A stretch of DNA of 64,000 nucleotides, taken from contig OZ244852.1 in the NCBI GenBank assembly GCA_965220965.1, positions 2,336,001-2,400,000 of the forward strand. Reading direction: 5' to 3'. Each line of letters opens with the position of its first letter. The stretch's first letter is position 1. Origin of the DNA: Candidatus Marinacidobacterium sp. Its GTDB lineage: Bacteria > Acidobacteriota > Vicinamibacteria > Marinacidobacterales > Marinacidobacteraceae. This document shows positions 40,775 through 54,593 of the stretch, in pieces. The notes below the pieces were generated by a model that did no database searches, had not been told where the DNA came from, and saw only the letters and a list, made by a program, of their open reading frames with translations. The position numbers were made by a program, and so were the translations under genes.

Positions 40775-40850
40775 TGGCGCGCCCTGAGGGATTCGAACCC
40801 CCGGCCTACAGGTTCGTAGCCTGTTGCTCTCTCCACTGAGCTAAGGGCGC
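40775..40850 (-). tRNA. tRNA-Arg(ACG)
   Basis: GCGCCCTTAGCTCAGTGGAGAGAGCAACAGGCTACGAACCTGTAGGCCGGGGGTTCGAATCCCTCAGGGCGCGCCA; cloverleaf with encoded CCA. Confidence 0.97.
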
Positions 40851-40937
40851 GTGCGACGCGGGACCCAAGCCGCGCTCCCCGATGCGTGGACGGGATCGGC
40901 GGCTGCTCTTCGGCGCCGGACCCGAACGCCCTCCCGC

Positions 40938-41012
40938 TGGTACCGCTACGGGGATTCGAACCCCGGTTTGATGGCTGAGAACCACCCGTCCTAACCCCTA
41001 GACGATAGCGGC
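40938..41012 (-). tRNA. tRNA-Glu(CTC)
   Basis: GCCGCTATCGTCTAGGGGTTAGGACGGGTGGTTCTCAGCCATCAAACCGGGGTTCGAATCCCCGTAGCGGTACCA. Confidence 0.97.
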
Positions 41013-41912
41013 ATCGGCGGGAGGGACCACGGATCGTAACACGCCGTTCGCCCTTCGGCCGGTCGCGCCGCCCCCGCGCTCGATCCGGACGACGGTCCCG
41101 AGGCCCCAGTCCTGGATCGTGGGGGCCCGGAGGTCGGGGGCGCCGCGACGCCCGCCCCCCTCGGGCGTCAGGCGCACCAGAACGCGCGCCCGGGAACGCG
41201 AAGGGAGGAACCGGGCCAGCAGCAGGCCCTTTCCGAGGACGGCGTGGGGCGTCTCGAACACGACCCGGGAGGCCCCCGCCGCCGCGGCCGCGTCGAGCGC
41301 GCCTTCCGCCAGCGCCGCGGTGACGTCCACCTGCTCCGGTTCGGGAGGCGCGATCCAGTCCACGGCTTCGAGGACGCCGACGGCGGCCCAGGCGAGCGCG
41401 GCGTCCGCGACCGGAGCGCCGTCCCGCAACACCTGCGCTCCGCAGGCGCGGGGCCCGGCCGCCGTCAGTTCGCAGGCCACGCGAAAGCCTGGAACAAGTC
41501 GGACGCGGAGCCTTCGGGCGGCGGCGGACCCGAGCGGGCGCGGGATCGCCTCCAGTCCCGTCCGGGCGCGGCGACCGGGCAGCAGCGCTGCGGTCAGCGC
41601 GCGGCGCAGCCGGCCGGGCCGCACCGGGGCGGAGAAGCGGGGCAGCGGGCCGGCGTCCTCGAAACCGAGCGCCCGGAGGTCGGCGTAGAGGTCAGCCTCG
41701 ACGACCGGAAGGACGACGACCGCGTTCCCGGCGGCGCGCGCCCAGCGGGAGAGCCGCAGCAGATCGTCCCGGCGCGCCGCGCCGCCGGCGATGGCGCACG
41801 CCGTCAGAAGCTCCGCCGGTGCGTCAGGGCGCCAGCTCAGCGGCGACGCCGAGAGCGCCGGGCGTCCCGGCTCGGCGCCCCCTTCGCCCGACGAGCCGTC
41901 CCCCGCGCTCAC
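40998..41912 (-). CDS. Hypothetical protein (possibly degenerate GNAT-like)
   Basis: GTGA overlap with the pspC stop; LYADLRALGF and LLLARF segments resemble GNAT C-termini; stop lies inside tRNA-Glu. Confidence 0.5.
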   Translation of the reverse strand: MSAGDGSSGEGGAEPGRPALSASPLSWRPDAPAELLTACAIAGGAARRDDLLRLSRWARAAGNAVVVLPVVEADLYADLRALGFEDAGPLPRFSAPVRPGRLRRALTAALLPGRRARTGLEAIPRPLGSAAARRLRVRLVPGFRVACELTAAGPRACGAQVLRDGAPVADAALAWAAVGVLEAVDWIAPPEPEQVDVTAALAEGALDAAAAAGASRVVFETPHAVLGKGLLLARFLPSRSRARVLVRLTPEGGGRRGAPDLRAPTIQDWGLGTVVRIERGGGATGRRANGVLRSVVPPADAAIV

Positions 41913-42100
41913 TCCTCGGCGGGCGCCATCAGAATCGCGAGGATCAGGTAGACCAGGATGCCGGGAAAGGCCGCCGAGCAGACGCTCACGAGGACGAAGA
42001 GCACGCGCAGGAGCGTGCGGTCGATGCTCCACCAGTCGGCGAGACCGGCGCAGACGCCGAGCAGCATGCGCCCCTGCATCGGGCGAACGAGCTGGGTCAT
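41909..42100 (-). CDS. pspC: PspC domain protein
   Basis: RMLLGVCAGLA, D.TLLRVLFV, YLILAILM; GGAG RBS. Confidence 0.9.
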   Translation of the reverse strand: MTQLVRPMQGRMLLGVCAGLADWWSIDRTLLRVLFVLVSVCSAAFPGILVYLILAILMAPAEE

Positions 42101-42140
42101 GGATGTCTCCTCCGTGCGGCGACGGTCTGGAAGGGGCGGG

Positions 42141-42968
42141 TCAGGCCAGCGCTGACATCAGGACCGCCAGGAGGCTGGCGGCGAGCAGGACGAGCGCCCA
42201 CAGGCCATGGCGTCCGCGTTCCTGGCTGAAGACGCCGAAGCGCGAGGCGACCCAGTAGCCGCCGGCGAAGCCTCCGAGGTGGGCGGCGTTGTCGATGCCG
42301 GGGATGAGGAGCCCGAACACCGCCAGAAAGATGACGTAGCGCCAGATCATCCGGGCGAACGCCGAACTCGTCCGGCGGCCGACGTAGAGCAGCGCGCCGA
42401 GCAGGCCGCACACCGAGGCCGAGGCCCCCACCGTGAAGCCGGCGCCGCCGAGTCCGGGAATCGGGATGGACGCCGCCCCGAGGAACGACGACAGCAGGAA
42501 CCCGCTCATCGCCGCCACCTGGTAGATCACCAGGGTTCGCGCCGGCCCGAACTCCTGGCTGACGGCCGGGAACAGGTTCCACAGCCAGTACATGTTGAAC
42601 AGGATGTGGAGCAGCCCCCCGTGGAGCCACCCGGCGCTGAACACCGTGTACCACTTGCCGGCGGCGAACACCGGAAGCGCTCCGGAGGCGCCGAGCAGGT
42701 AGAGCACCTGACCGTCCGGACTCAGGAAGCCGAGAAACCCCCCAACCCCGATCCGGGCGCCGCTGAGGAGAAGCGCCAGCCCGAAGAGGACGGCGTTCGC
42801 GCCAATGAGCGCGGTCTGGACCGCCGGGCCGTCGAACCGCAGCATCGAGGCGAACCCGAACATCCCCGGATTGCGCCGCCCGCAGGACAGGCACTCCTCG
42901 TCCCGCACCCCGACGAGCTGGCCGCAACCCGGACACAGGACCGAGCCGGACCGCTGCCGTCCGATCAT
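42141..42968 (-). CDS. Rhomboid intramembrane serine protease with N-terminal zinc ribbon
   Basis: CPGC..CLSC, HILFNM, VGAS, NAAHLGG. Confidence 0.92.
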   Translation of the reverse strand: MIGRQRSGSVLCPGCGQLVGVRDEECLSCGRRNPGMFGFASMLRFDGPAVQTALIGANAVLFGLALLLSGARIGVGGFLGFLSPDGQVLYLLGASGALPVFAAGKWYTVFSAGWLHGGLLHILFNMYWLWNLFPAVSQEFGPARTLVIYQVAAMSGFLLSSFLGAASIPIPGLGGAGFTVGASASVCGLLGALLYVGRRTSSAFARMIWRYVIFLAVFGLLIPGIDNAAHLGGFAGGYWVASRFGVFSQERGRHGLWALVLLAASLLAVLMSALA

Positions 42969-42976
42969 CGCGCCTC

Positions 42977-44098
42977 CTATTCTGCCACGGCGTCATCGTC
43001 GAAATAGTCGCGCACCGCCGCGACGACGCGGTCCGCTTCGGCCTCGGTGATGCCGGGGTGGAAGGGCAGGCTGACGACCTCGTCGGCCGCCCGGATCGCC
43101 TCGGGAAAGGCCTCCTCCGGCGTCGCGCCCTGGGTCCGGAACGCCGGCTGCAGCGGAAGCGGAACCGGGTAGTGGATCAGCGTCTCCACGCCGGCGGCGT
43201 GGAGGCTCGAGCGGAGCGCGTCGCGCCTCGGGCTCCTCAGGACGAACAGGTGGCGGGCGCTCTCGTCGGACCGGTCGGCGGCGACGAGCCCGACGGGAAG
43301 CCCCCCGAGACCCTCCCGATACCGGCGGGCGAGGCGGCGACGGGCGCGCAGCCCGGCGTCCAGTCGGGCGAGCCGGACCGAGAGCACCGCCGCCTGGAGC
43401 TCGTCGAGGCGGCTGTTCCAACCGGGCCAGCCGTGCGCGTGACGGGCGATCTGCCCTCCGTTCCGGAAGCGGCGCACCCGACGGGCGATGTCGTCATCAT
43501 CGGTCGCGACGAGTCCCGCGTCGCCGAGCGCCCCCAGGTTCTTCGTGGGGTAGAAGCTGAACGCTGCCGCCAGCCCGAGCCCGCCGACCGGGCGGCCGCC
43601 GAAACGCGCCCCGTGCGCCTGACTCGCGTCCTCGATGACCGGCACGCCATGGGCCCGCGCCGCGTCGAGGACTCGGTCGAAGCGCGGCGGGGCGGAGCCG
43701 TAGAGGTGCACCGGAACGACCGCCCGGAACCGTCCGGTGGCGATCGCGGCTTCGGCCGCGGTCGCATCCATCCCGAGGGAGTGCGGCTCCACGTCGCAGA
43801 ACGCGACGGCGGCGCCGGTCCGCCGGATGCCCACACCGGTGTAACCCGCCGAGAACGCCGAAGTGAGGACGCGGTCCCCGGGCCCGACCCCGGCAGCGAC
43901 GAGCGCGAGGGTGATCGCGTCGGTCCCGGAAGCGACGCCCACCGCGTGGCGCACCCCCACCGCCTCGGCGAACGCGGACTCGAACGCTTCGACCTCGGGG
44001 CCCAGCACGTAGCGGCCCGAGGCGAGCACGCGCTGGATCGCCTCCCGGACGGCGGGGTCATCCGCAGCCTCGAGCCGCGCGAACCGGACGGATTCCAC
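42977..44098 (-). CDS. DegT/DnrJ/EryC1/StrS aminotransferase
   Basis: SGTDA, PVHLYG, EDASQAHGA, SFYPTKNLGALGD, NSRLDELQA. Confidence 0.93.
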   Translation of the reverse strand: MESVRFARLEAADDPAVREAIQRVLASGRYVLGPEVEAFESAFAEAVGVRHAVGVASGTDAITLALVAAGVGPGDRVLTSAFSAGYTGVGIRRTGAAVAFCDVEPHSLGMDATAAEAAIATGRFRAVVPVHLYGSAPPRFDRVLDAARAHGVPVIEDASQAHGARFGGRPVGGLGLAAAFSFYPTKNLGALGDAGLVATDDDDIARRVRRFRNGGQIARHAHGWPGWNSRLDELQAAVLSVRLARLDAGLRARRRLARRYREGLGGLPVGLVAADRSDESARHLFVLRSPRRDALRSSLHAAGVETLIHYPVPLPLQPAFRTQGATPEEAFPEAIRAADEVVSLPFHPGITEAEADRVVAAVRDYFDDDAVAE

Positions 44099-44103
44099 AG
44101 CCT

Positions 44104-45117
44104 CTATTTCGTCGGCGGCCCCCCGGCGGTTCCCGCCAGGCGGCGGAAGGCCCTCACCGTGTGGCGCAGGCCATCCCGGAGGGACACCGACGGCGCCCAG
44201 GCGAGGTCCCGCCGGATCCGCGACGCGTCGCAGTGGATTCCTCCGACGGCGATCGCGCGATCCGTTGCGGCGAGCGGGAACGTGCTCACCCGGAGCGGCG
44301 CCCCCACGGCGTCGAACACCGCTTCGGCGAACTCGAGGAGTGTCACCGGAGCCCCGCCCAGGTTCCAGACGCCGGAGGGCGCCCCGGGGCGGCCGGCCAG
44401 CAGGAGCGCTTCGACGACCTCGTCCACGTGGAGCGGGTCCCGCAGCAGATCCGGGTCGCCGAAGAGGTGGATCTCCTCGCCGCGGAGCGCGCGCTCCAGG
44501 AAGGCGCCGCTGAACCCGGCGCCCGGCCCGTCGAGCGGCTGGCCGGGGCCATAGGTGTTCGTGAGGCGCAGCGCCGCACAGCCGCCGTCTTCCGGAGCGA
44601 GCAGCCGCAGAAGGTGTTCCGCGGCCTCCTTGTGGACCGAGTGGACATCGGGAGGCCGCACAGGGTGATCCTCGTTCACCGGGAGGGACTCGGCGGCGCC
44701 GTAGAGCTGGCGCGTGCTCGCCAGCACGACCCGGGTCGAACCGCCCACCGAGCGCATGACGCCGAGGAGCCCCATGACGTTGTCCTCGAAGTCGGCGACC
44801 GGGTTCTCCATGCTGGCGCGGTGGCCGTTCGCCGCGGCGAGATGGAAGACGACTTCGGCTTCCCGCAGCAGGTTCCTCGCTGCGCCGGGTCGCGCGAGGT
44901 CGGCGCGGTGAAACCTGGCGCCCTTGGGCGCCCCGGAGAGTCCGGCGCGATCCACCCCGGTCACCGCGGTCCCGGCCCTCGCCAGCGCGGCGAGCAACCG
45001 CCGCCCGATGAACCCGGCGGCCCCGGTCACCACGACCTCCCGGCTGCGGAAGCCGGCGGCCGCCGCGGTCACCCGCTCGCCGACCCCGGCGGGGGAAGAC
45101 GGAGGCCCGGGATCCAC
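44104..45117 (-). CDS. NAD-dependent epimerase/dehydratase
   Basis: TGAAGFIG, ASTRQLYG, H.VHK in place of YxxxK, RLTNTYGP; GTG start 7 nt after TACGCT. Confidence 0.88.
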   Translation of the reverse strand: MDPGPPSSPAGVGERVTAAAAGFRSREVVVTGAAGFIGRRLLAALARAGTAVTGVDRAGLSGAPKGARFHRADLARPGAARNLLREAEVVFHLAAANGHRASMENPVADFEDNVMGLLGVMRSVGGSTRVVLASTRQLYGAAESLPVNEDHPVRPPDVHSVHKEAAEHLLRLLAPEDGGCAALRLTNTYGPGQPLDGPGAGFSGAFLERALRGEEIHLFGDPDLLRDPLHVDEVVEALLLAGRPGAPSGVWNLGGAPVTLLEFAEAVFDAVGAPLRVSTFPLAATDRAIAVGGIHCDASRIRRDLAWAPSVSLRDGLRHTVRAFRRLAGTAGGPPTK

Positions 45118-45170
45118 GGCGGGGAGCGTACCGGTCTCCCGGGCGCCGCTACGCTCCGCGCCGTGGACCC
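45110..45170. promoter_or_regulatory. Mirror-symmetric divergent promoter pair (21-bp inverted repeat, 19-bp spacer)
   Basis: Both strands read TACGCTCC[C/G]CGCCGTGGA[T/C]CC, each containing a -10-like hexamer and the GTG start. Confidence 0.65.
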
Positions 45171-45888
45171 ACGCGACCGTCCCGAAGCCCGCCCGGGCGC
45201 GCTGTTCGTGGTGGCCACCCCCATCGGGAACCTTGAAGATCTGTCGCCGCGGGCGGCCCGGGTGCTCGCCGAGGTCCCCCGGATCGCGTGCGAGGACACC
45301 CGGGTGACCGGCAGGCTCCGGGCGCGCTTCGGCTTCACCGCGCGGCTCGTCTCGCTCCATGAACACAACGAGCGCGACCGCGTTCCCCGCCTCGTGCAGG
45401 GGCTTCTCGCCGGCGAGGATCTCGCGCTCGTCACCGACGCCGGAACCCCGCTGATTTCGGATCCCGGCTACCGGCTCGTGCGGGCCGCCCGGGCCGCGGG
45501 GGTTCCGGTGCGGACGGCGCCGGGGCCATCCGCGGTCACGGCGGCGCTTTCCGTGTCGGGCCTCCCCACCGACGCCTTCACGTTCCTGGGGTTTCCGCCG
45601 CCGCGGGCCGGCGGGCGCCGCAAGCGGTTCCTCGAGCGGGCCGCCAACGCGGCCGGGTCGCTCGTGATGTTCGAATCGGCCCGTCGGGCCGCCCGCCTGC
45701 TCGACGAACTCGCCGAGACTCTGGGGCCCCGCGAGGCCTCCCTGTCGCGGGAGATGACCAAGCTCCACGAGGAACACTGGGCGGGCCTGCTGCCCGAACT
45801 CGCCGAGCGGGCGCGGCGCGAGCCCCCCCGCGGAGAGGTCACGCTGGTAGTGGCGCCGGAGGGCCGCCGGAGGGCTTCCCCGGCGTAG
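45163..45888 (+). CDS. rsmI: 16S rRNA C1402 2'-O-methyltransferase
   Basis: VATPIGNLED, CEDTR, DAGTPLISDPG, REMTKLHEE, RGEVT. Confidence 0.95.
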   Translation: MDPRDRPEARPGALFVVATPIGNLEDLSPRAARVLAEVPRIACEDTRVTGRLRARFGFTARLVSLHEHNERDRVPRLVQGLLAGEDLALVTDAGTPLISDPGYRLVRAARAAGVPVRTAPGPSAVTAALSVSGLPTDAFTFLGFPPPRAGGRRKRFLERAANAAGSLVMFESARRAARLLDELAETLGPREASLSREMTKLHEEHWAGLLPELAERARREPPRGEVTLVVAPEGRRRASPA

Positions 45889-46061
45889 AATTTCCCGGTC
45901 AGGGGGCTTCGACGGGCGGCGAATCACCGACCGCCAGGCATCCGTCCCGGAAGCGGTCGCCGCGGGCGCGGCGAGCCCTTCCCGGGTCTTCCCCCGGACC
46001 CTCCCCTTTCTCACCTTCCCGTGAGGTCCCGGATCACTGCCGGCCGGGCGTCAGGAGATTC

Positions 46062-47231
46062 ATGAACTTCCTCCTTCTCTGCTCCGAGGGCCCCGCGGGG
46101 CGGGATCTCCCCTGGCGGGGGACCACGGTGGCGGAAGCCGCCGCCCGGGCCGCCGCGCCGCTCGTTTCGGACGGCGCGGTCGCGCTCGTGGTCGGCGCCC
46201 CCGCCCCGGATGTCCGACTCCCCGACGGTTTCGAGACCGCCACCCCGAAGGAGGCCGCCGCCCGGCTCCGGGCTCTCCCGGAGGGATCTTCGGGACTCGC
46301 GCTCGCCGCCGGGGTCTGCGATCCGCCGCTCGACCGGCTCGGCGGCCTGATCGAGGGCGTCACCGCCGAACGGCCGGCGCCGCTGCTGAATCAGGCCGGC
46401 CACCTGATCGCCGTCGGCTGGACCGCAGCAGCCCTCGCCGATGCGGTCGCGCCAACGTTCGACGAAACCGTCTCCGGCGTGGAGCTGCCCCGCCGCGCGA
46501 ATCGCGTCCTCGGCGTCGTCCGGATCTCGGGCGCGGCGAGCTGGTCGGAAGCCCTGTTGACCGATCGGCGGCGCACCGCCCGCAACCTCCTTCAGGCGGG
46601 GGTTCTCGTCGAGGATCCCGACACGCTGTGGGCCGACGCGACCTGCCGGATCGAGCCGGGGGCGCGCATCGGACCCTCGGTCATGCTGCTGGGAAGCACC
46701 AGCGTCGCCGCCGGCGCCGAGGTGTCGGCCTTCTGCCGACTGGAGAACACCGAGGTCCGGGCCGGGGCGCGGGTCCTGACCCACACCACGATCTCCGACA
46801 GCGTCATCGGCCGCGAAGCGAAGGTGGGACCCTTCGCCCACATCCGGCCGAACACCCGGCTCGAGCCGGGCGCCTTCGCCGGCGCCTTCACCGAGACCAA
46901 GAACGCCGTGCTCGGGAGGAACTCCGCGCTGCCGCATCTCTCCTACCTCGGAGACGCCGAGGTGGCCCACCGGGTGAACCTGGGCGCGGGGACGATCACC
47001 TGCAACTACGACGGCCGGGGCAAGCACAAGACGGTGATCGAGGCCGGGGCGTTCGTCGGCAGCAACGCGATCCTGGTGGCGCCGGTCCGGATCGGACGCC
47101 GGGCCTTCGTCGCCGCCGGATCCGTCATCGTGGAGGATGTCCCGGATGAGGCGATGGCGATCGCGCGGGGCCGGCAGGCGGTGAAACCGGGACGGGCCGC
47201 GGGACGCTTCGAGGGAGCGGACGAGGTCTGA
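46062..47231 (+). CDS. glmU: GlmU-like protein: intact acetyltransferase beta-helix, degenerate uridyltransferase domain
   Basis: VGPFAHIRP, HLSYLGDA, NLGAGTITCNYDG, FVGSN present; LAAG.GTRM..PK motif absent and the N-domain shortened. Confidence 0.85.
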   Translation: MNFLLLCSEGPAGRDLPWRGTTVAEAAARAAAPLVSDGAVALVVGAPAPDVRLPDGFETATPKEAAARLRALPEGSSGLALAAGVCDPPLDRLGGLIEGVTAERPAPLLNQAGHLIAVGWTAAALADAVAPTFDETVSGVELPRRANRVLGVVRISGAASWSEALLTDRRRTARNLLQAGVLVEDPDTLWADATCRIEPGARIGPSVMLLGSTSVAAGAEVSAFCRLENTEVRAGARVLTHTTISDSVIGREAKVGPFAHIRPNTRLEPGAFAGAFTETKNAVLGRNSALPHLSYLGDAEVAHRVNLGAGTITCNYDGRGKHKTVIEAGAFVGSNAILVAPVRIGRRAFVAAGSVIVEDVPDEAMAIARGRQAVKPGRAAGRFEGADEV

Positions 47232-47271
47232 GCGCGAGACCCCGGACCCGACCCGCAAACGGCGCATCAGG

Positions 47272-48366
47272 GTGACGCCCCTCCCGCCGGCCGAGCGGAC
47301 CGCGCTCTGGTCCGAGATCCGGGAGCAGCCGGCGGCGGCGCGCCGCGCCCTCGAGAAGCTCGCCGCTGGCGCAACCGCGCGCCGGGCCGCGCTCGCCGGG
47401 CGCCTCGGCGGGGAGGTCGTGCTGACCGGCGCCGGGACCAGTCGCCACGCGGCGGAGGCGGCGGCCGCGACCTGGCGCCGGGATCTGGGACTCGCGGCGC
47501 GCGCCGCCGCAGTCACCGGGTTCGACGCCGCCGGCGAGAAGCCCTCGGCCATCGTCGCCATCACCCAGTCGGGGGCGACCGGAAGCGTTCTCCGACTCCT
47601 CCGCGAAGCCGGGCGACAGTCCGTCTTCCGGGTGGTCGTCACGAACGCCCCCGAGAGCGAGGCGGCGGAGCGCGCCGACCTGACGCTCGTGACGCCGGCC
47701 GGACCGGAGCGGGCGATCCCCGCCACGAAGTCGTTCACGAGCGCGCTGGTCGCCCTGCTCGCGCTCGGCCGGGACTGGGCGGCGGCCGGGGGGACAGCGC
47801 CCGCGGCGCGACTCGAGGCCGCGGACCGCGTCGCCGCGGCGGCCCCCGGGCTGCTGGCGGCGGCGGTGGCGCAGGACGACCGCATCTCCCGCTTCGGAAG
47901 CGCGGCGGCGCGCCCGGGTCCGTGGTTCTTCCTCGGGGGCGCCGGGCTCCGCCCGCTGGCGCGGGAAGGAGCGCTCAAGATGGCGGAGACGGCGGTCGTC
48001 CCGGCGATGGAGCTTCCGGCGGGCGAACTGGCTCACGGCCCGGCGGCGCTCCTCACGCCGGAGACGCCGGTGGTCGTGGTCTCCGGGGACGCGAGGCCGG
48101 GACCCGCCGAGGCCCGATCCCTCGAGGCCGCGCGGTCCGCCGGCGCTCCGGTGGTCCGGATCGCGCCCGGGCCGGCGCCCGCTCGGCCCGCGGCGCGCGA
48201 GACCGGTGTGGATCTTCCGGCGCCCGCGGAGGCGGTCGGGGCCCCGGCCGCGCTCGCGTTCTTCGCGGCGCCGCTGCTCCAGCTTCTCGCCTTCCACACC
48301 GGCCGCCAGCTCGGCAGGGACGTGGACCGGCCCCCGCGTCTCGGCAAGGCGGTCGGCGATGACTGA
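47272..48366 (+). CDS. Double-SIS GlmS-like isomerase/deaminase lacking the glutaminase domain
   Basis: GTS.HA, TQSGAT, GPE.AIPATKSF, EGALK..E, GELAHGP, DVD.P.RLGKAV; no N-terminal CG Ntn domain. Confidence 0.85.
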   Translation: MTPLPPAERTALWSEIREQPAAARRALEKLAAGATARRAALAGRLGGEVVLTGAGTSRHAAEAAAATWRRDLGLAARAAAVTGFDAAGEKPSAIVAITQSGATGSVLRLLREAGRQSVFRVVVTNAPESEAAERADLTLVTPAGPERAIPATKSFTSALVALLALGRDWAAAGGTAPAARLEAADRVAAAAPGLLAAAVAQDDRISRFGSAAARPGPWFFLGGAGLRPLAREGALKMAETAVVPAMELPAGELAHGPAALLTPETPVVVVSGDARPGPAEARSLEAARSAGAPVVRIAPGPAPARPAARETGVDLPAPAEAVGAPAALAFFAAPLLQLLAFHTGRQLGRDVDRPPRLGKAVGDD

Positions 48367-50563
48367 AGACGCCGCCCCGGGGCGCGACGGTCGACTTCGC
48401 GAGGTTCTCGAGGGACTGAACCCGTCGCAGCGGGCGGCGGTGACGGCCCCGGCCGGACCGATCCTCGTCTTCGCCGGCGCCGGCTCCGGCAAGACCCGCG
48501 TCATCACCCGCCGGATCGCCTGGCTCGTGCTGGAGGAGGGCGCGCGTCCCGACTCGATCCTGGCGGTGACCTTCACGAACAAGGCCGCCCGCGAAATGCG
48601 CGACCGCGTGGAGTCGCTGAGCCGGGGAGCGGCCGCGCTCGAAGACGCGTCCCGCCCCTGGGTCTCGACCTTCCACGCCTTCGCGCTGGCGCTGCTTCGC
48701 CAGTTCAGCCTTGCGGCCGGGCTGCCCACCGGGTTCCCCGTCCTCGGCGCCTCCGAGAGCCGCCTCCTGCTCCGCCGGACCGCCCGGCGCCTCGGGGTGA
48801 ACGACGACCAGATCCCGCTGCGCGCGCTGGTGTCCGGGGTCTCGGCGCTGAGGAACGCCACCGCCGCCGGCGTCGAATGGCGCGGACCGCGCCTTCCGGA
48901 GCGCCGACGGACGGTGGTCGAGGTCGCGGAGGCCTATGAGGAAGAACTGCAGGCCCTCGGGTCGGTCGACTTCGACGACCTGCAGATCCGGGCCCTCGGA
49001 CTGCTCAACGCGCACGAAGACGCGCGCCGGTTCCTGGCCCGCCGGGCCCGCCGGGTGCTGGTGGACGAGTACCAGGACACCAGCCCGCTCCAGCACCTCC
49101 TGCTGAGGAAGCTGGCGCCCCACCGCGACGTGTTTGCGGTCGGGGATGACGACCAGTCCATCTACTCGTTCCGCGGCGCCGACTACCGGAACATCCTCCG
49201 CTTCGAGGAGGACTTCCCCGGCGCCCGGGTCTTCCGTCTGGAAGAGAACTACCGCTCGACCGCGGCGATCCTCGAGGCCGCAAACGCGGTGATCCGGCGG
49301 AACCGGGAGCGGGCCGGGAAGACCCTCCGCGCGATCGGCGACAAGGGCGCCCCGGTGCGGTTCCGGGCTCACGGGAGCGAGACGGACGAGGCCCGGAAGA
49401 TTGCGGCGGACATCCTCGGCTGGGGCGACGCCCGCGGCTCGGTTGCGGTGCTCGTGCGGACGAGGGCCCAGACCCGCGCCTTCGAGGAGGCCTTTGCGGT
49501 CAGACGCATCCCGCACTTCGTGATCGGGGGCCTGCGGTTCTACGAGCGCCGCGAAGTCCTCGACGCCATCGCCTGGGTCCGGGTTGGCGCGCGCGATCGC
49601 GACGACGACGCCTTCCGCCGGGCCCTCGGGTCCCCGGCCCGGGGCGTCGGCCCCCAGTCCCTCGCGCGCATCGCCGAGGCGGCGGGGCTCGAGAAGGTTT
49701 CACTCCTCGAAGCCGCTCGCCGGCTCTCATCCGACCGCGCTTTCGGAGGGCGTCCCGCCACCGGGCTCCGGACCTTCCTCGCCGCCGTCGCGGCGGTCAG
49801 CAAGGCGGCGGAGCTGGGGCCCGAGGCGGCGGTCCGCGCCGCGGTCGAGACCAGCGGCCTCGGGGAGAGCGTCGCCGAGGACCCCGAACGGACGGAGAAC
49901 CTCGCTTCGCTCCGGTCCGCCGCCCGCGAATGGGACGCGGCGAACGGTCCCCGGGAGGGCGGCGACGCCGACGACGCGCCGGGGTCGGGGAGGGCCCGCG
50001 TCGTCGCCTTCCTCGACCAGGTGAGCCTGCTCGCCGCCGAAGACCTCGCCCCGCAGGGGGGCGCGGCGTCCGGGCCGCCGCCGGTGCTCATCATGACCGT
50101 CCACGCCGCCAAGGGCCTCGAGTTCGACCGGGTATTCCTGGCGGGGCTCTGGGAAGGCCTGTTTCCGCACTCGCTTTCGCTCGATTCGCACGCGGGCATC
50201 GAGGAGGAGCGGCGTCTCTTCTATGTGGGCATGACCCGCGCCCGCCGGGAGCTGTTCCTCTCCGCGGCGCCGGGGACGATGGCCTTTCGTCCCCAGGGCG
50301 GGGGCGTCTCGCGATTCCTCCGCGACATCCCGGGGGCGCTGGTGGAGGCTTCCGGACAACCTGCGAGGCCGCCGTCCGCGCGGCGACGCCCGGCGGCCGT
50401 CGTCGCCGGGCTTCGCCGGGGCCAGCGGGTGCACCACCCGAGGTTCGGCGAGGGGAGGGTCGAATCGGTGGACCCGGCCGCCGGCCGCGTCACCGTGGTC
50501 TTTCCCGGGTGGGGCCGGAAGCGCCTCGTGCCGGAGTACGCCCGCCTGCGGATCGTGCGCTGA
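48359..50563 (+). CDS. uvrD: UvrD/PcrA helicase
   Basis: AGAGSGKT, TFTNKAA, VDEYQD, GDDDQSIYSFRGA, NYRS, TVHAAKGLEF, EEERRLFYVGMTRA, C-terminal HPRFGEG. Confidence 0.95.
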   Translation: MTEDAAPGRDGRLREVLEGLNPSQRAAVTAPAGPILVFAGAGSGKTRVITRRIAWLVLEEGARPDSILAVTFTNKAAREMRDRVESLSRGAAALEDASRPWVSTFHAFALALLRQFSLAAGLPTGFPVLGASESRLLLRRTARRLGVNDDQIPLRALVSGVSALRNATAAGVEWRGPRLPERRRTVVEVAEAYEEELQALGSVDFDDLQIRALGLLNAHEDARRFLARRARRVLVDEYQDTSPLQHLLLRKLAPHRDVFAVGDDDQSIYSFRGADYRNILRFEEDFPGARVFRLEENYRSTAAILEAANAVIRRNRERAGKTLRAIGDKGAPVRFRAHGSETDEARKIAADILGWGDARGSVAVLVRTRAQTRAFEEAFAVRRIPHFVIGGLRFYERREVLDAIAWVRVGARDRDDDAFRRALGSPARGVGPQSLARIAEAAGLEKVSLLEAARRLSSDRAFGGRPATGLRTFLAAVAAVSKAAELGPEAAVRAAVETSGLGESVAEDPERTENLASLRSAAREWDAANGPREGGDADDAPGSGRARVVAFLDQVSLLAAEDLAPQGGAASGPPPVLIMTVHAAKGLEFDRVFLAGLWEGLFPHSLSLDSHAGIEEERRLFYVGMTRARRELFLSAAPGTMAFRPQGGGVSRFLRDIPGALVEASGQPARPPSARRRPAAVVAGLRRGQRVHHPRFGEGRVESVDPAAGRVTVVFPGWGRKRLVPEYARLRIVR

Positions 50564-50581
50564 GCAGCCCGTGGGGAGGGG

Positions 50582-51142
50582 CTACCCGGTCTTCCCGGCC
50601 AGCTCGGCGAGCCGGTAGACAGCCACCAGCGGGACCCCCACCGACGCCAGCCGCGCGGCCGCGCCCGCTTCGCGGTCCACCAGCGCGAGCGCGCCCATGA
50701 CCTCGAAGCCGGCCTCCCGCGCCGCTTCGACGGCGCGAAGGGTCGAGCCCCCGGTCGTCGCGGTGTCCTCGAGGATCACCGCAGGACCCGACGGCGCCTC
50801 CACACCCTCGACGAGGCGGCCGCGCCCGTGCCCCTTCCCCTCCTTCCGCACGAAGAACCCGTGGAGCTCCCGCCCCGCGGCGCCGGCGGCGCCGGCCAGC
50901 GCGGTGGCCAGGGGGATGGCGCCCGCCGCCATCCCTCCGACCGCGGCCGGCGCCCACCCCGCGTCGTCAAGCGCGGCAAGAAGCACGCGGCCGAGAAGGG
51001 GGACGGCGTCGGCGCGCATCACGGTGAGCCGAGCGTCCAGGTAAACGCTGGAAGTTCCGCCGTGGGCAAGCCGGAACTCGCCGAATCGCAAGGACTCCCG
51101 CCGCAACAGCGCGGCGAGCGCCGCGCGGTCGACGGCGCTCAC
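50582..51142 (-). CDS. pyrE: Orotate phosphoribosyltransferase
   Basis: GEFRL, YLDAR, RKE.KGHG, LEDTATTGGS. Confidence 0.93.
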   Translation of the reverse strand: MSAVDRAALAALLRRESLRFGEFRLAHGGTSSVYLDARLTVMRADAVPLLGRVLLAALDDAGWAPAAVGGMAAGAIPLATALAGAAGAAGRELHGFFVRKEGKGHGRGRLVEGVEAPSGPAVILEDTATTGGSTLRAVEAAREAGFEVMGALALVDREAGAAARLASVGVPLVAVYRLAELAGKTG

Positions 51143-51882
51143 CCGGGGCCGGCGCCGGGAACCGGCGGGGGCGACTCGCCCGCGTCCACGGACTCGATCG
51201 CCGCCACCACCCAGCGGGACGCGATCGCGTTCCCGAACTGGTTCGTCAGGTCGTAGCGGATCAGGACGAACCGGTAGTCCTGCTCCCCGTTCACCCGGAC
51301 GCGCAGCTCCTTCTCGGTGACGGTTCCTTCGAGATAGTCCACCGGAGCGTCCCGCAGCAGGCTGCGCCGGGCGCGGCGGCGCTCCTCCTCGAGAGCCATC
51401 TGGACCTCGGCGAGCGCCCGCCGCACCTCGGTCCGATCACCCTGATGCGTTTCCCACTCCTCCTCGATCGCCGCGAGCCGTCCTCCCAGAGACCCCTCGG
51501 GCCGAACCTCGCGGCGTTCGGCGATCGCCCGGATGGAGGCCTGGTTCGCGGAGCGGAAGCTGGAGAAGACCTGGAACTGTTCGTCCCGCAGGCGGGTCGC
51601 CTCGCGCTCTTCGTCGAGGAGCTGCGGGACCCGGTAGGGGCCGCTGGTGGGCTCCGAGACCTCGAGGAGTTCCCAGGAAGCGGGCGGGTCTCCCGGGAAG
51701 GAGACCATCGAGAGGCCGGCGAAGGTGTTCCGGTCCTCCTGCCCGAGCGCCCGGAAGAACTGCTCCAGGAGGGTCTGCTCCGGCGACCCGGAGCAGGCGA
51801 ACGAAACGAGCGCGAGCGTCGCCAGGACGGGACGAAGCGTCGCCCGCGCGACCGGCTGGCCCGATCGGCGCCCACCCGTCAC
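51139..51882 (-). CDS. Hypothetical lipoprotein with central coiled coil
   Basis: SFAC lipobox; GTGA overlaps with gyrA and pyrE. Confidence 0.75.
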   Translation of the reverse strand: MTGGRRSGQPVARATLRPVLATLALVSFACSGSPEQTLLEQFFRALGQEDRNTFAGLSMVSFPGDPPASWELLEVSEPTSGPYRVPQLLDEEREATRLRDEQFQVFSSFRSANQASIRAIAERREVRPEGSLGGRLAAIEEEWETHQGDRTEVRRALAEVQMALEEERRRARRSLLRDAPVDYLEGTVTEKELRVRVNGEQDYRFVLIRYDLTNQFGNAIASRWVVAAIESVDAGESPPPVPGAGPG

Positions 51883-54593
51883 GGCGTCGCGTCCCCGGGC
51901 TCCACCGCGCCGTTCCCGGGCGTCCGGGAGCCCTGCCCGTTCTCCTGCGGGTCGCCGCCCGCGGGCTCCGATTCCGGTATCCGGGAGAGGGCCACCACCT
52001 CGTCGTTGTCCCGGACCCGGACCGCCCGGACTCCCTGCGTGATGCGGCCGAGTTCGGGGAACTCGTCCACCCGGGTCCGCACCGCCTTCCCTGCGGCGGT
52101 GATGACGAGCAGGTCCTCGCCGGGCCGGACCCACACCGTGGCCACCTCGGGGCCGTTGCGCTCCGAGGTCTGGATGTTCCGCAGGCCCTGACCTCCCCGG
52201 CCCTGCGGCCGGTAGAGATCCAGCCGGCTCCGCTTGCCGAAGCCGTGGCGGGTCACCGTCAGAAGCGAGCCGCGCTCGCCGGAGGCGGCGGCGTCCGCGT
52301 CCACCACGACGAGGCTGACCACCTCGTCACCCGGTCGCAGCGTGATCCCCCGGACCCCGGCGGCGACGCGACCCATCGGCCGGACATCGCTCTCGGGGAA
52401 ACGGATCGCCTTGCCGCCCCGGGTCGTGAGCACGATCTCGCCGGAGCCCCGCGTCAGGACCGCGGCGAGGAGCTCGTCGTCCTCGCGGATGCGAACCGCC
52501 CGCAGCCCGCTCGCGCGCAGGTTCCGGTACTGCTCGAAAGGCGTCCGCTTGACCTGCCCCCGCCGCGTCGCGGTGAGCAGGAAGAGGCCCGAGGAGGTCT
52601 CGCCGGCCTCCACTCCTTCGGGTAGCGGCACCACGGCGACGACTTTCCGTTCGCGGGGCAGGCGAAGCAGGTTCACGATCGCCCGGCCGGTTCCCGCCTT
52701 CCCGGCCTCGGGGAGTTCAAATCCCTTGAGGCGGTAGATGACTCCCTCGTCGGTCAGGAAGAGGATGCTCAGGTGAGTGTTCCCCACAATGAGGTCGCGG
52801 ATGGCGTCGCCCTCGCGGATCCCGGCCCCCAGGTGCCCGGTCCCGCCGCGGGACTGGGCGCGGTATTCGTCGAGGGGCGTCCGCTTGATGTAGCCCGCCT
52901 GCGTCACCGAAACCGCGATGTCCTCGACCGGGATCAGCTCTTCGATCGTGATGTCGGTCGTCCCCTCGGCGATCTCGGTGCGCCGGTCGTTCCCGTACTT
53001 CTTCGCGGCCGCCACCGCCTCTTCGCGCACGATGGCGTCGATCCGGCTCGCGCTGCCCAGGATGTCGGAGAGCTCGAGGATCCGGGCGTCGAGCTGGGCG
53101 ATCTCGGCTTCGATCTTCTCCCGCTCCATCTGGGTGAGCCGCTGCAGACGCATGTCCAGGATGGCCTGCGCCTGCGCTTCCGAGAGCCCGGTGGCCGCCG
53201 TATCGATCGGCCCGTTCCCGGCGCGCGTCATGAGTTCCCGGTCCACCCGATGACGCGGCTGCAGCTCGCGCTGGAGCCGGGCTCGCGCCGTCTTCGGATC
53301 CGGCGAGCTGCGGATCCACCCGATGACCTCGTCGAGCCGGTCGACCGCGGCCGCAAGACCCTCGAGGATGTGGAGCCGCTCCTCGCAGCGCTCGAGTTCG
53401 AAGCGGACCCGCCTTCGCACGACGTCGCGCCGGAAGGCCAGGAAGTCGCGCAGCATCCCGAGCAGCGAGTACCGCTTCGGCCGGCCGCCGGAGATGGCGA
53501 GCAGGTTCACGCCGAAGGAGCTCTGGAGCGCGGTGTGCCGGTAGAGGTTGTTCAGGACGACCTGCGGCTCCTCGCCCCGCTTCAGGTCGATGACGACCCG
53601 CATCCCGCGCCGGTCCGACTCGTCGCGGAGATCCCGGATCCCGGTGATCCGCTTGTCCTTGACCAGGTCGGCGATCTTCTCGATCAGGCGCGCCTTGTTC
53701 ACCTGGTAGGGGATCTCGGACACCACGATCCGGTCCATGCCCTTCGCGGTCGTCTCGAAGTCGCAGACCGCGCGCACCTGGACCACGCCGCGCCCCGTCC
53801 GGTAGGCGGACACGATGCCGCGGCGGCCGTGGATGCGGCCCCCGGTCGGAAAGTCCGGGCCCGGCACGATCTGGAGGAGCTCACGATCCAGCTCCTCGTC
53901 CGGCGCGTTGGCGCGGTCGATGAGATGGACGAGCGCGGCGGTGACTTCCCGGAGGTTGTGGGGCGGAATCTTGGTCGCCATGCCCACCGCGATCCCGTCC
54001 GAGCCGTTCACCAGCAGGTTCGGAATGACGGTGGGAAGAACCTGGGGCTCCAGCGTCTTGCCGTCGAAGTTGGGCGAGAACGGGACGGTCTCCCGGTCGA
54101 TGTCCTCCATCATCGCGGTGGAGAACGGCGTCAGCCGGGCCTCGGTGTAGCGGTAGGCGGCGGCGGGATCGCCGTCGACCGAACCGAAGTTGCCCTTGCC
54201 GTCGATCAGCGGGTGCCGCAGATTGAAGGCCTGGGCCATGCGGACCAGGGTGTCGTAGACCGGGCCATCTCCGTGCGGGTGGTACTTCTTCAGCACCTCG
54301 CCCACGATCCCGGCGCACTTCGACCACGCCCGGGAGGGGAGCAGGCCCTCGCGGAACATCGCGTAGAGCACGCGGCGCTGGCCGGGCTTCAGCCCGTCGC
54401 GGACATCGGGGAGCGCCCGCCCGATGATCACCGACATGGCGTAGTCCAGATAGGACTGCTTCATCTCGGCCTCGATGTGCTCGACGCGCCGGAAGCGCGC
54501 CCGCCCACCGAGCGAGCCGGGGTCGGAGATCCCTCCGTTTCCGGGGGAACCGGGTTCCATCTCGGGGAGGGAGCCCGGGTGCGGGTCAGCCAT
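51879..54593 (-). CDS. gyrA: DNA gyrase subunit A
   Basis: [25 protein letters not shown] catalytic Tyr, GyrA-box QSRGGTG. Confidence 0.98.

Follow-up and report, generated by a model that had tools for sequence, protein, structure and literature searches.

A GlmU-like protein with a degenerate uridyltransferase domain and a GlmS-like isomerase without a glutaminase in Candidatus Marinacidobacterium: a possible rewiring of UDP-N-acetylglucosamine synthesis

INTRODUCTION

The enzymes GlmS, GlmM, and GlmU are regarded as essential in nearly all bacteria and as targets for antibiotics. How, then, does a bacterium make UDP-N-acetylglucosamine (UDP-GlcNAc) if its GlmU and GlmS homologues each appear to have only one of two catalytic halves? 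The question is raised by two adjacent genes in a 64,000-nucleotide (nt) stretch of DNA from Candidatus Marinacidobacterium sp. (contig OZ244852.1, positions 2,336,001 to 2,400,000; here called the window), one encoding a GlmU-like protein and the other a protein consisting of the SIS domains of GlmS (the SIS-only protein). The original prediction, made from the letters and open reading frames (ORFs) of the window, was that each enzyme has lost one catalytic half and that the operon has been rewired, either to ammonia-dependent synthesis with a separate uridyltransferase or to amino-sugar salvage. On balance, we consider it somewhat probable that UDP-GlcNAc synthesis has been rewired throughout the lineage to depend on free ammonia and a separate uridyltransferase.

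The window (G000:C1:2336001-2400000; G+C content, 70 to 75%) comes from a 3.25-Mb genome, G000, that is 94% complete in two contigs. It was compared with 40 relatives from the same order, giving 41 genomes, of which 25 (including G000) belong to the family of the window and 16, including the unpublished genome G033, to two sister families. A phylum-level sample comprised 251 Acidobacteriota genomes, including the unpublished G088, G186, and G063.

RESULTS

The GlmU-like protein has an intact acetyltransferase half

Hexapep was the sole Pfam family identified in the 389-amino-acid GlmU-like protein, with no NTP_transferase family at E <= 0.01. The NCBIfam glmU profile (TIGR01173) matched residues 168 to 378 only, corresponding to profile positions 236 to 446 of 452, and the score of 239.9 bits was below the cutoff of 366.85. 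Solved GlmU proteins likewise aligned only from about residue 165 onward, with 37% to 49% identity in the C-terminal domain. The acetyltransferase motifs that the original prediction had recognized were all present (HLSYLGD, residues 292 to 298; NYDG, residues 315 to 318). In an alignment of 31 sequences, 47 columns were invariant; none of them lay before residue 186, and they included R262, E278, K280, H292, Y295, N306, N315, K321, S334, and R369. The structure match (query residues 167 to 377 with chain residues 238 to 448) gives an offset of +71 to E. coli GlmU, at which these columns coincide with R333, E349, K351, H363, Y366, N377, N386, K392, S405, and R440, which we take to be the acetyltransferase residues of the E. 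coli enzyme.

The AlphaFold2 model of the whole protein had a predicted local distance difference test (pLDDT) score of 89. Residues 1 to 374 superposed on residues 2 to 450 of solved GlmUs with a Z score of ~31 to 32, a value that the C-terminal domain by itself already yields (31.5). A helix at residues 158 to 178 of the model aligned with the canonical GlmU helical arm; W161, A164, and G180 of the GlmU-like protein were nearly invariant among the 31 sequences. The ratio of nonsynonymous to synonymous substitution rates (dN/dS), calculated here and below from 12 pairwise comparisons, was 0.05 to 0.20 for the acetyltransferase domain. The assignment of this protein as a GlmU with predicted acetyltransferase activity only is well supported.

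The N-terminal domain is predicted to be a stripped-down nucleotidyltransferase core

In the alignment with canonical GlmUs, the uridyltransferase motifs GxGTRM...PK, QxxQLGTGHA, GYGR, E..NTG, and EYYLTD were all absent from the first ~150 residues. The domain is ~150 residues long versus ~230 in normal GlmUs, i.e., ~70 to 80 residues shorter, and it lacks the sugar-binding subdomain, in agreement with the earlier claim of a short N terminus without a uridyltransferase signature. Modeled alone with AlphaFold2 (pLDDT, 92.4) and compared with 48,161 chains, the domain retrieved nucleotidyltransferases or their relatives as nearly all of the top 50 matches: IspD (Z score, 12.1), the N-terminal domains of GlmUs (Z scores, 9.4 to 9.9 over 141 to 143 aligned residues; 9.9 over 141 residues for 1hm0), MobA, CMP-sugar synthetases, and similar enzymes. 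An intact uridyltransferase site in the predicted structure would have spoken against the original prediction; the model retained the fold, but the alignment showed none of the site motifs, and the N-terminal domain is accordingly described here as a predicted nucleotidyltransferase core whose catalytic site is gone.

The link to nucleotidyltransferases came from the fold comparison only and not from the sequence. A profile built from 28 N-terminal domains and searched against 1.84 billion representative sequences gave 18 matches at E <= 1e-3, eight of them at E <= 1e-10, and none of the 18 was listed with a match of nucleotidyltransferase length. Order-wide, the columns in residues 2 to 160 that were at least 80% conserved contained G, V, A, L, and P only, with no conserved polar residue. 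Nevertheless, the reading frame is open, as had been noted from the window alone: it was free of stop codons in 23 of the 24 other family genomes, the dN/dS of the domain (0.16 to 0.43) was below 1, and the AGGAGA ribosome-binding site ahead of the ATG makes translation of the N-terminal region very likely. The domain is relaxed yet under purifying selection.

The neighboring gene encodes the isomerase half of GlmS

SIS was the sole Pfam family in the 364-amino-acid product of the gene that follows. The glmS profile TIGR01135, its best-matching family, aligned over positions 255 to 604 of 607 (155.5 bits; cutoff, 418.05), while the NagB-II (NF046059) and GlmD (NF041128) profiles gave 51.3 and 40.7 bits, under equivalog cutoffs of 430 and 580, respectively. 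A FrlB-type fructosamine deglycase was also considered, and no such family was found among the 12 NCBIfam matches. In the alignment to E. coli GlmS (3ooj and 1moq), the phosphate loop T98-Q-S-G-A-T103 lies opposite S347 to T352, and E488, H504, and the C-tail K603, whose equivalents had been predicted from the sequence, are all kept, as is K485. The reported lack of an Ntn (class II) glutaminase domain was borne out by Pfam and by the glmS profile; moreover, the spacer of 41 nt between the two genes leaves no space for a glutaminase remnant. In all family members, the SIS-only proteins begin at glmS profile position ~253 to 255.

In a 37-row tree of SIS and GlmS sequences, from which the distant or partial SIS rows L144, L145, and L146 were dropped beforehand and which carries a long-branch warning, the SIS-only proteins of the family grouped together as a monophyletic clade with a support of 100/100, and another SIS-only paralogue, which occurs in the sister families, fell outside this clade. 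Both an in situ truncation of glmS and its substitution by a paralogue are compatible with the tree. A large protein collection contained ~56 clusters at least 43% identical to the SIS-only protein; the next relatives were SIS-only proteins of ~375 amino acids (~33% identity) and full-length GlmS (~30%). The dN/dS of the SIS gene was 0.19 to 0.33.

Distribution in the order and the phylum

The GlmU-like gene was full length, with 54% to 77% identity, in the 23 family genomes mentioned above. Matches to the glmU profile were limited to positions ~205 to 451 in each of the 41 order genomes, and none exceeded the cutoff; the dead N-terminal domain is therefore an order-wide trait. In the sister families it coexists with a normal glmS: a full-length glmS (800 to 842 bits) is located directly beside glmU in all 16 genomes, where that of G033 was counted as full length from two contig-end fragments. 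Within the family of the window, the SIS-only gene is beside glmU in 22 of the 25 genomes. Full-length glmS was found in four (G021:C1:1111391-1113223, G024:C17:1451350-1453182, G006:C1:2476952-2478781, and, as fragments, G008), in each case away from glmU. G006 and G008 have no SIS-only gene, and the helicase gene directly follows glmU. Neither gene of the pair was found in G017 (91% complete, 90 contigs), probably due to an assembly gap. The full-length glmS genes of G021, G024, and G006 have long branches (0.73 and 1.18) in the tree, where they fall outside the clade formed by glmS of the sister families, and they may have been acquired secondarily. The claim of a double loss in the pair therefore stands as far as both enzymes have one recognizable half, but the two losses were separate events rather than one, because the dead N-terminal domain is order-wide and the glutaminase loss is confined to one family.

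When relatives were sought with the GlmU-like protein, the best 80 of 588 matches were to the C-terminal domain only and came from other lineages, with no close relative among them. In the phylum sample, GlmU exceeded the cutoff in 200 of the 251 genomes, was absent at E <= 1e-40 in 15, and was represented by a partial match only (best E value between 1e-40 and ~1e-104, below the cutoff) in 36, so that partial GlmUs are not rare in the phylum. Several Acidobacteriota families had two GlmU matches per genome, which may represent a split GlmU, and Acanthopleuribacter pedis (L082:5599-6729) encodes a 377-amino-acid GlmU with a short N-terminal domain devoid of the motifs.

The rest of the pathway

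As had been proposed, G000 was searched for full-length glmU and glmS genes, and none was found. MurA was present (407 bits, above the cutoff), so the organism needs UDP-GlcNAc. The only class II glutaminase domain in G000 was that of PurF, a protein of 480 amino acids whose gene adjoins purL. In the 24 family genomes searched, NagB-I was not detected at E <= 1e-8, and NagA was not detected at E <= 1e-20 in a search that scored 35 candidates per genome, where the first look had given as many as 81. Canonical GlmM exceeded the cutoff in 16 of 16 sister-family genomes versus 0 of 25 genomes of the window's family, which by this comparison also appears to have lost canonical GlmM. The only phosphohexomutase of the family is of the phosphomannomutase/phosphoglucomutase (PMM/PGM) type (found in 24 of 25 genomes; 173 to 197 bits); that of G000 reached 343 bits with the PMM/PGM profile, compared with 285 bits for archaeal GlmM, and adjoins a ManC-like nucleotidyltransferase gene (G000:C1:994135-996656; loci L007 and L132). 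GlmR/YvcK (PF01933) had no match in G000.

Candidate uridyltransferases

Three PF00483 nucleotidyltransferases were identified in G000, one ManC-like (C1:995514-996656), one MurU/ManC-like (around C1:1599196-1599618), and one similar to ST0452 of Sulfolobus tokodaii; no GalU-like gene was among them. The ST0452-like protein (380 amino acids; G000:C1:1565218-1566357) had archaeal GlmU (TIGR03992) as its best family (160.4 bits versus a cutoff of 292.1; profile positions 2 to 307 of 393) and ST0452 itself (5z09; 2e-20) as its best solved relative, with an alignment ending at chain residue 305. The catalytic Arg and the PKP Lys align with those of ST0452, and an alignment of seven sequences that represent the three families, together with a ManC-like outgroup, showed conservation of R, PKP, GT, NGDD, and EKP. 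The acetyltransferase motif H-x-S-Y-x-GD was not seen in the beta-helix tail.

The ST0452-like protein was present in 39 of the 41 order genomes (24/24, 6/8, and 8/8 across the three families), with 63% to 83% identity within the window's family, and in 2 of the 251 phylum-sample genomes at E <= 1e-45. The ManC-like enzyme was found at the same threshold in 62 of 251, including all 22 genomes of the same class; GlmU is normal (E value of 1e-138 or better) in 20 of these 22. In both phylum searches, seven candidates were scored per genome. Because the ST0452-like protein and the dead GlmU N-terminal domain are distributed alike, this protein is our preferred uridyltransferase candidate.

G000 also encodes a eukaryote-type UDP-sugar pyrophosphorylase (PF01704; G000:C1:923819-924967, locus L149:1345-2736; 349 bits). 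All 24 family genomes searched have the gene, whereas it was found in only 1 of the 16 genomes of the sister families and in none of 14 control genomes. It was considered as a candidate NagU/UAP1-type uridyltransferase, but its product is more like UDP-glucose pyrophosphorylases: its best solved relatives are the UDP-glucose pyrophosphorylases of Leishmania and Trypanosoma (327 bits), and no UAP1 structure matched at E <= 1e-5. Since no GalU-like gene was among the PF00483 matches, the protein probably makes UDP-glucose, and by its sequence the gene is a probable replacement for GalU. The only sister-family copy (G035:C22:557537-558759) consists of two overlapping pieces (profile positions 4 to 280 and 277 to 411), possibly as a result of a frameshift or because the gene is a pseudogene.

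Organization of the locus

The features of the locus are listed in Table 1. The gene order on the plus strand is rsmI-like, glmU-like, SIS, and uvrD/pcrA helicase. The helicase gene, with its ATG at 48359, shares its first 8 nt with the final codons and the stop codon of the SIS gene (48359 to 48366; ATGACTGA), which suggests translational coupling between a cell wall precursor gene and a DNA repair helicase gene. Divergently upstream of the operon, on the minus strand, are a DegT/DnrJ/EryC1-type sugar aminotransferase gene (42977 to 44098) and an NAD-dependent epimerase/dehydratase gene (from 44104); together, the genes at 42977 to 45100 may form an amino-sugar modification cluster near the operon. 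A rhomboid protease gene is located at 42141 to 42968.

TABLE 1 Features of the glmU-like/SIS locus (window coordinates)
Feature	Coordinates	Strand	Basis
rsmI-like methyltransferase gene	45202..45888 (45202 is the beginning of the Pfam match, not a called start codon)	+	TP_methylase (PF00590), residues 348 to 548 of ORF 44161-45888
Ribosome-binding site AGGAGA before the glmU-like ATG	46053..46058	+	Direct sequence reading
glmU-like ORF, 389 amino acids	46062..47231	+	
GlmU-like vestigial N-terminal domain, residues 1 to 152	46062..46517	+	Nucleotidyltransferase-like fold without uridyltransferase motifs
GlmU helical arm joining both domains, residues ~153 to 188	46518..46625	+	Model and alignment
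GlmU left-handed beta-helix, predicted GlcN-1-P N-acetyltransferase domain, intact	46626..47231	+	Hexapep, 4e-21; glmU profile, 5e-71
SIS-SIS gene, GlmS isomerase half without glutaminase domain, 364 amino acids	47272..48366	+	SIS Pfam family; glmS profile
uvrD/pcrA-type helicase gene	48359..50563	+	UvrD-helicase and UvrD_C domains

At ~75% G+C, the region from 41000 to 52000 contains ORFs of 100 to 650 amino acids in nearly every frame, exemplified by a 655-amino-acid ORF antisense to glmU (46011 to 47978, minus strand); because nearly all high-GC frames are open, ORF length alone is no evidence for a gene, and for the GlmU-like protein the ribosome-binding site and the dN/dS below 1 weigh more. 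An Rfam scan of the whole window at gathering level found no glmS ribozyme or other RNA before the operon, the only matches being two tRNA genes (40778 to 41012, minus strand). A promoter scan of positions 44000 to 51000 gave none, and the one terminator-like site did not exceed shuffled sequences; such scans are uninformative at this G+C content.

DISCUSSION

A proposed route to UDP-GlcNAc

Gene content, synteny, and phyletic patterns are the basis from which we infer in which direction the SIS enzyme runs and which protein is the uridyltransferase. In the route that we favor, the SIS-only protein, a GlmS that would have shed its glutaminase, would aminate fructose-6-phosphate with free ammonia to give glucosamine-6-phosphate (GlcN-6-P), i.e., it would carry out a reaction of the GlmD/NagB-II type toward synthesis; we regard this step as somewhat probable. 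The PMM/PGM or archaeal-GlmM-like mutase, as the only phosphohexomutase found, would then convert GlcN-6-P to glucosamine-1-phosphate (GlcN-1-P). The beta-helix of the GlmU-like protein very likely acetylates GlcN-1-P, with the N-terminal domain being a dead remnant kept as a folded structural appendage. Finally, with about even confidence, the ST0452-like nucleotidyltransferase would uridylylate N-acetylglucosamine-1-phosphate (GlcNAc-1-P). On this reading, a pair of two-domain paralogues would share the work of GlmU, one having lost the half that is still functional in the other. A further elaboration, in which all cell wall amino sugar comes from free ammonia and the dead domains of the paralogues hold one GlcNAc-1-P-channeling complex together, is doubtful.

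Several observations weigh against this route. The direction assigned to the SIS enzyme is based on gene content and context only, and the characterized SIS-only enzymes are deaminases according to the part of the literature considered (PMC10201695). The SIS-only clade has a branch of 1.41 and evolves faster than full-length GlmS, which could reflect a changed function or relaxed constraint. E. coli GlmS is reported not to use exogenous ammonia, a trait not found in the papers considered here; if true, an isomerase domain derived from GlmS may be a poor ammonia-dependent synthase. The depth of the NagA search and of the phylum searches for the ST0452-like and ManC-like proteins also counts on this side. 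As for the uridyltransferase, the ST0452-like protein has Pro at the position of the Asp in the W-M-D-I-G motif of ST0452, no ST0452-like protein was found at E <= 1e-45 in G098 and G229, two genomes of the same class with a partial GlmU, and G000 has three other nucleotidyltransferases (the ManC-like, MurU/ManC-like, and PF01704 proteins).

Alternative explanations

Among the alternatives, the assignment of uridylylation to one of these three other enzymes is a substantial possibility, although we rate it below even. The ManC-like protein equals the ST0452-like protein on the archaeal GlmU profile (161.4 versus 160.4 bits) and adjoins the only mutase, but it is common where GlmU is normal and scores best as a mannose-1-phosphate guanylyltransferase (mycobacterial model, 229 bits). 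The PF01704 gene occurs throughout the family and nearly nowhere in the sister families, and a PF01704-type enzyme (NagU/UAP1-like) is reported to perform uridylylation in Staphylococcus aureus (bioRxiv 10.64898/2026.06.23.733835); against it stand its resemblance to the trypanosomatid UDP-glucose pyrophosphorylases rather than to UAP1 and its absence from the sister families, which share the dead GlmU N-terminal domain. An unlikely alternative is that the SIS-only protein acts in catabolism, as a GlmD/NagB-II-type deaminase of GlcN-6-P, in a family that would obtain its amino sugars from outside. Its architecture is that of the known deaminases, it has weak matches to their profiles and to the solved NagB-II 8eol, and the family genomes are small (2.7 to 4.9 Mb). 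However, NagA and NagB-I were not found under the thresholds given above, the gene shares an operon with a biosynthetic acetyltransferase gene between rsmI and uvrD with no transport or nag genes alongside, the protein is much nearer to GlmS than to NagB-II or GlmD, and both family genomes that certainly lack the SIS-only gene (G006 and G008) carry a full-length glmS. Moreover, the low dN/dS of the GlcN-1-P acetyltransferase (~0.1) points to strong purifying selection and hence to a need for GlcN phosphates, which a pure deaminase would drain. Of the two kinds of rewiring originally proposed, ammonia-dependent synthesis with a separate uridyltransferase therefore fits better, and salvage fits less well, given that NagA and NagB-I were not found in the searches described, the biosynthetic operon, and the complementarity to glmS.

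A split GlmS, in which the SIS-only protein receives ammonia from glutamine through a separately encoded glutaminase subunit, has a small chance of being correct. Two-subunit amidotransferases are common, and the survey for glutaminases covered class II only, but the sole class II domain of the genome belongs to PurF, and no partner gene lies between or beside the two genes, which are flanked by rsmI and uvrD. We consider it very improbable that the short N-terminal domain is still a uridyltransferase with a noncanonical site, making the GlmU-like protein bifunctional: the retained core fold, modeled with high confidence, and the purifying selection would be compatible with it, but every signature motif has been lost, there is no Pfam or NCBIfam nucleotidyltransferase match, the sugar-binding subdomain is absent from a domain that is ~70 to 80 residues too short, the order-wide conserved columns hold no residue other than G, V, A, L, and P, and none of the 18 profile matches was of nucleotidyltransferase length. 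Least credible of all is that the genes are decaying remnants or artifacts of long open frames. Spurious ORFs do occur in all frames at 75% G+C, but the glmU-like gene is full length and free of stops in nearly the entire family, the dN/dS values are 0.05 to 0.43, the ribosome-binding site is strong, and the catalytic columns are invariant. Neutral decay in relatives, which would have undermined the original prediction, was likewise not what the comparisons indicated (order-wide N-terminal domain, SIS-only gene in 22 of 25 family genomes, and dN/dS below 0.45), and both genes are conserved rather than decaying.

Comparison with known systems

The GlmU-like protein shares with bacterial GlmUs (TIGR01173; E. 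coli 1hv9 and Streptococcus pneumoniae 1hm0) the succession of N-terminal domain, helical arm, and left-handed beta-helix, the invariant acetyltransferase residues, and the ancestral glmU-glmS gene position, but it differs in its motif-less N-terminal domain of ~150 residues and its score below the cutoff. Truncated forms of GlmU and SIS-only deaminases are already known. Truncated halves of GlmU are reported to be individually active (PMC10087520; PMC4358021). Capnocytophaga is described as having its own stand-alone GlcNAc-1-P uridyltransferase, and E. coli GlmU without its first 77 residues (del78) supplied acetyltransferase function in that organism (PMC4358021). According to a preprint of June 2026, S. 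aureus relies on a UAP1-like NagU, and in some bacteria of the Planctomycetes-Verrucomicrobia-Chlamydiae (PVC) group, GlmU is reduced to its C-terminal acetyltransferase portion; its main text does not mention Acidobacteria (bioRxiv 10.64898/2026.06.23.733835). The protein described here resembles these acetyltransferase-only forms in that the acetyltransferase is its only predicted function, with a putative separate uridylylating enzyme, but differs in that the N-terminal domain has been kept as a folded, selected, motif-less domain and not deleted. Other differences from the PVC systems with NagU are the lineage, which is Acidobacteriota here, and the lack of an evident enzyme of the UAP1/NagU type; the product of the PF01704 gene is like UDP-glucose pyrophosphorylases. 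Our literature search, whose basis was thin, found no report of a vestigial GlmU domain in Acidobacteriota.

The SIS-only protein shares with GlmS (TIGR01135; E. coli 1moq and 3ooj) both SIS subdomains, the phosphate loop, K485, E488, H504, and K603, the best family match, and the position beside glmU; it differs in having no Ntn glutaminase, an identity of only ~30%, and a long branch. With GlmD of Thermococcus and Pyrococcus and NagB-II of Shewanella (8eol and 3hba), it shares the isomerase-only architecture and the catalytic Glu, His, and Ser; these SIS-fold GlcN-6-P deaminases are reported to share the catalytic residues of GlmS (PMC10201695). Reversible chemistry with free ammonia would also be common to both, and Pyrococcus GlmD is reported to have raised the glucosamine yield of yeast grown with ammonium (PMC12385614). 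The differences are the weak matches (40.7 to 51.3 bits versus cutoffs of 430 to 580), the lack of a nag catabolic context and of any NagA found, and the biosynthetic direction that we propose. The putative partner is similar to ST0452 and archaeal GlmU (TIGR03992) in combining a nucleotidyltransferase domain with a beta-helix and in its catalytic Arg and Lys, but it scores below the subfamily cutoff, its alignment stops before the acetyltransferase region, and its signature is G-x-S-x-R-T instead of G-x-G-x-R-L.

Implications

In most of the family genomes searched, GlmS, GlmM, and GlmU were not found in canonical form, and MurA is present in G000. The automatic names "GlmU" and "glutamine--fructose-6-phosphate aminotransferase" overstate the capability of these genes, which has consequences for how abundant soil bacteria and their nitrogen economy are represented in metabolic models. 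The family offers a natural test of whether a GlmS-type isomerase domain can be the sole, ammonia-dependent source of GlcN-6-P, of why a dead domain is kept for so long, and of how the activities of GlmU are repartitioned between paralogues.

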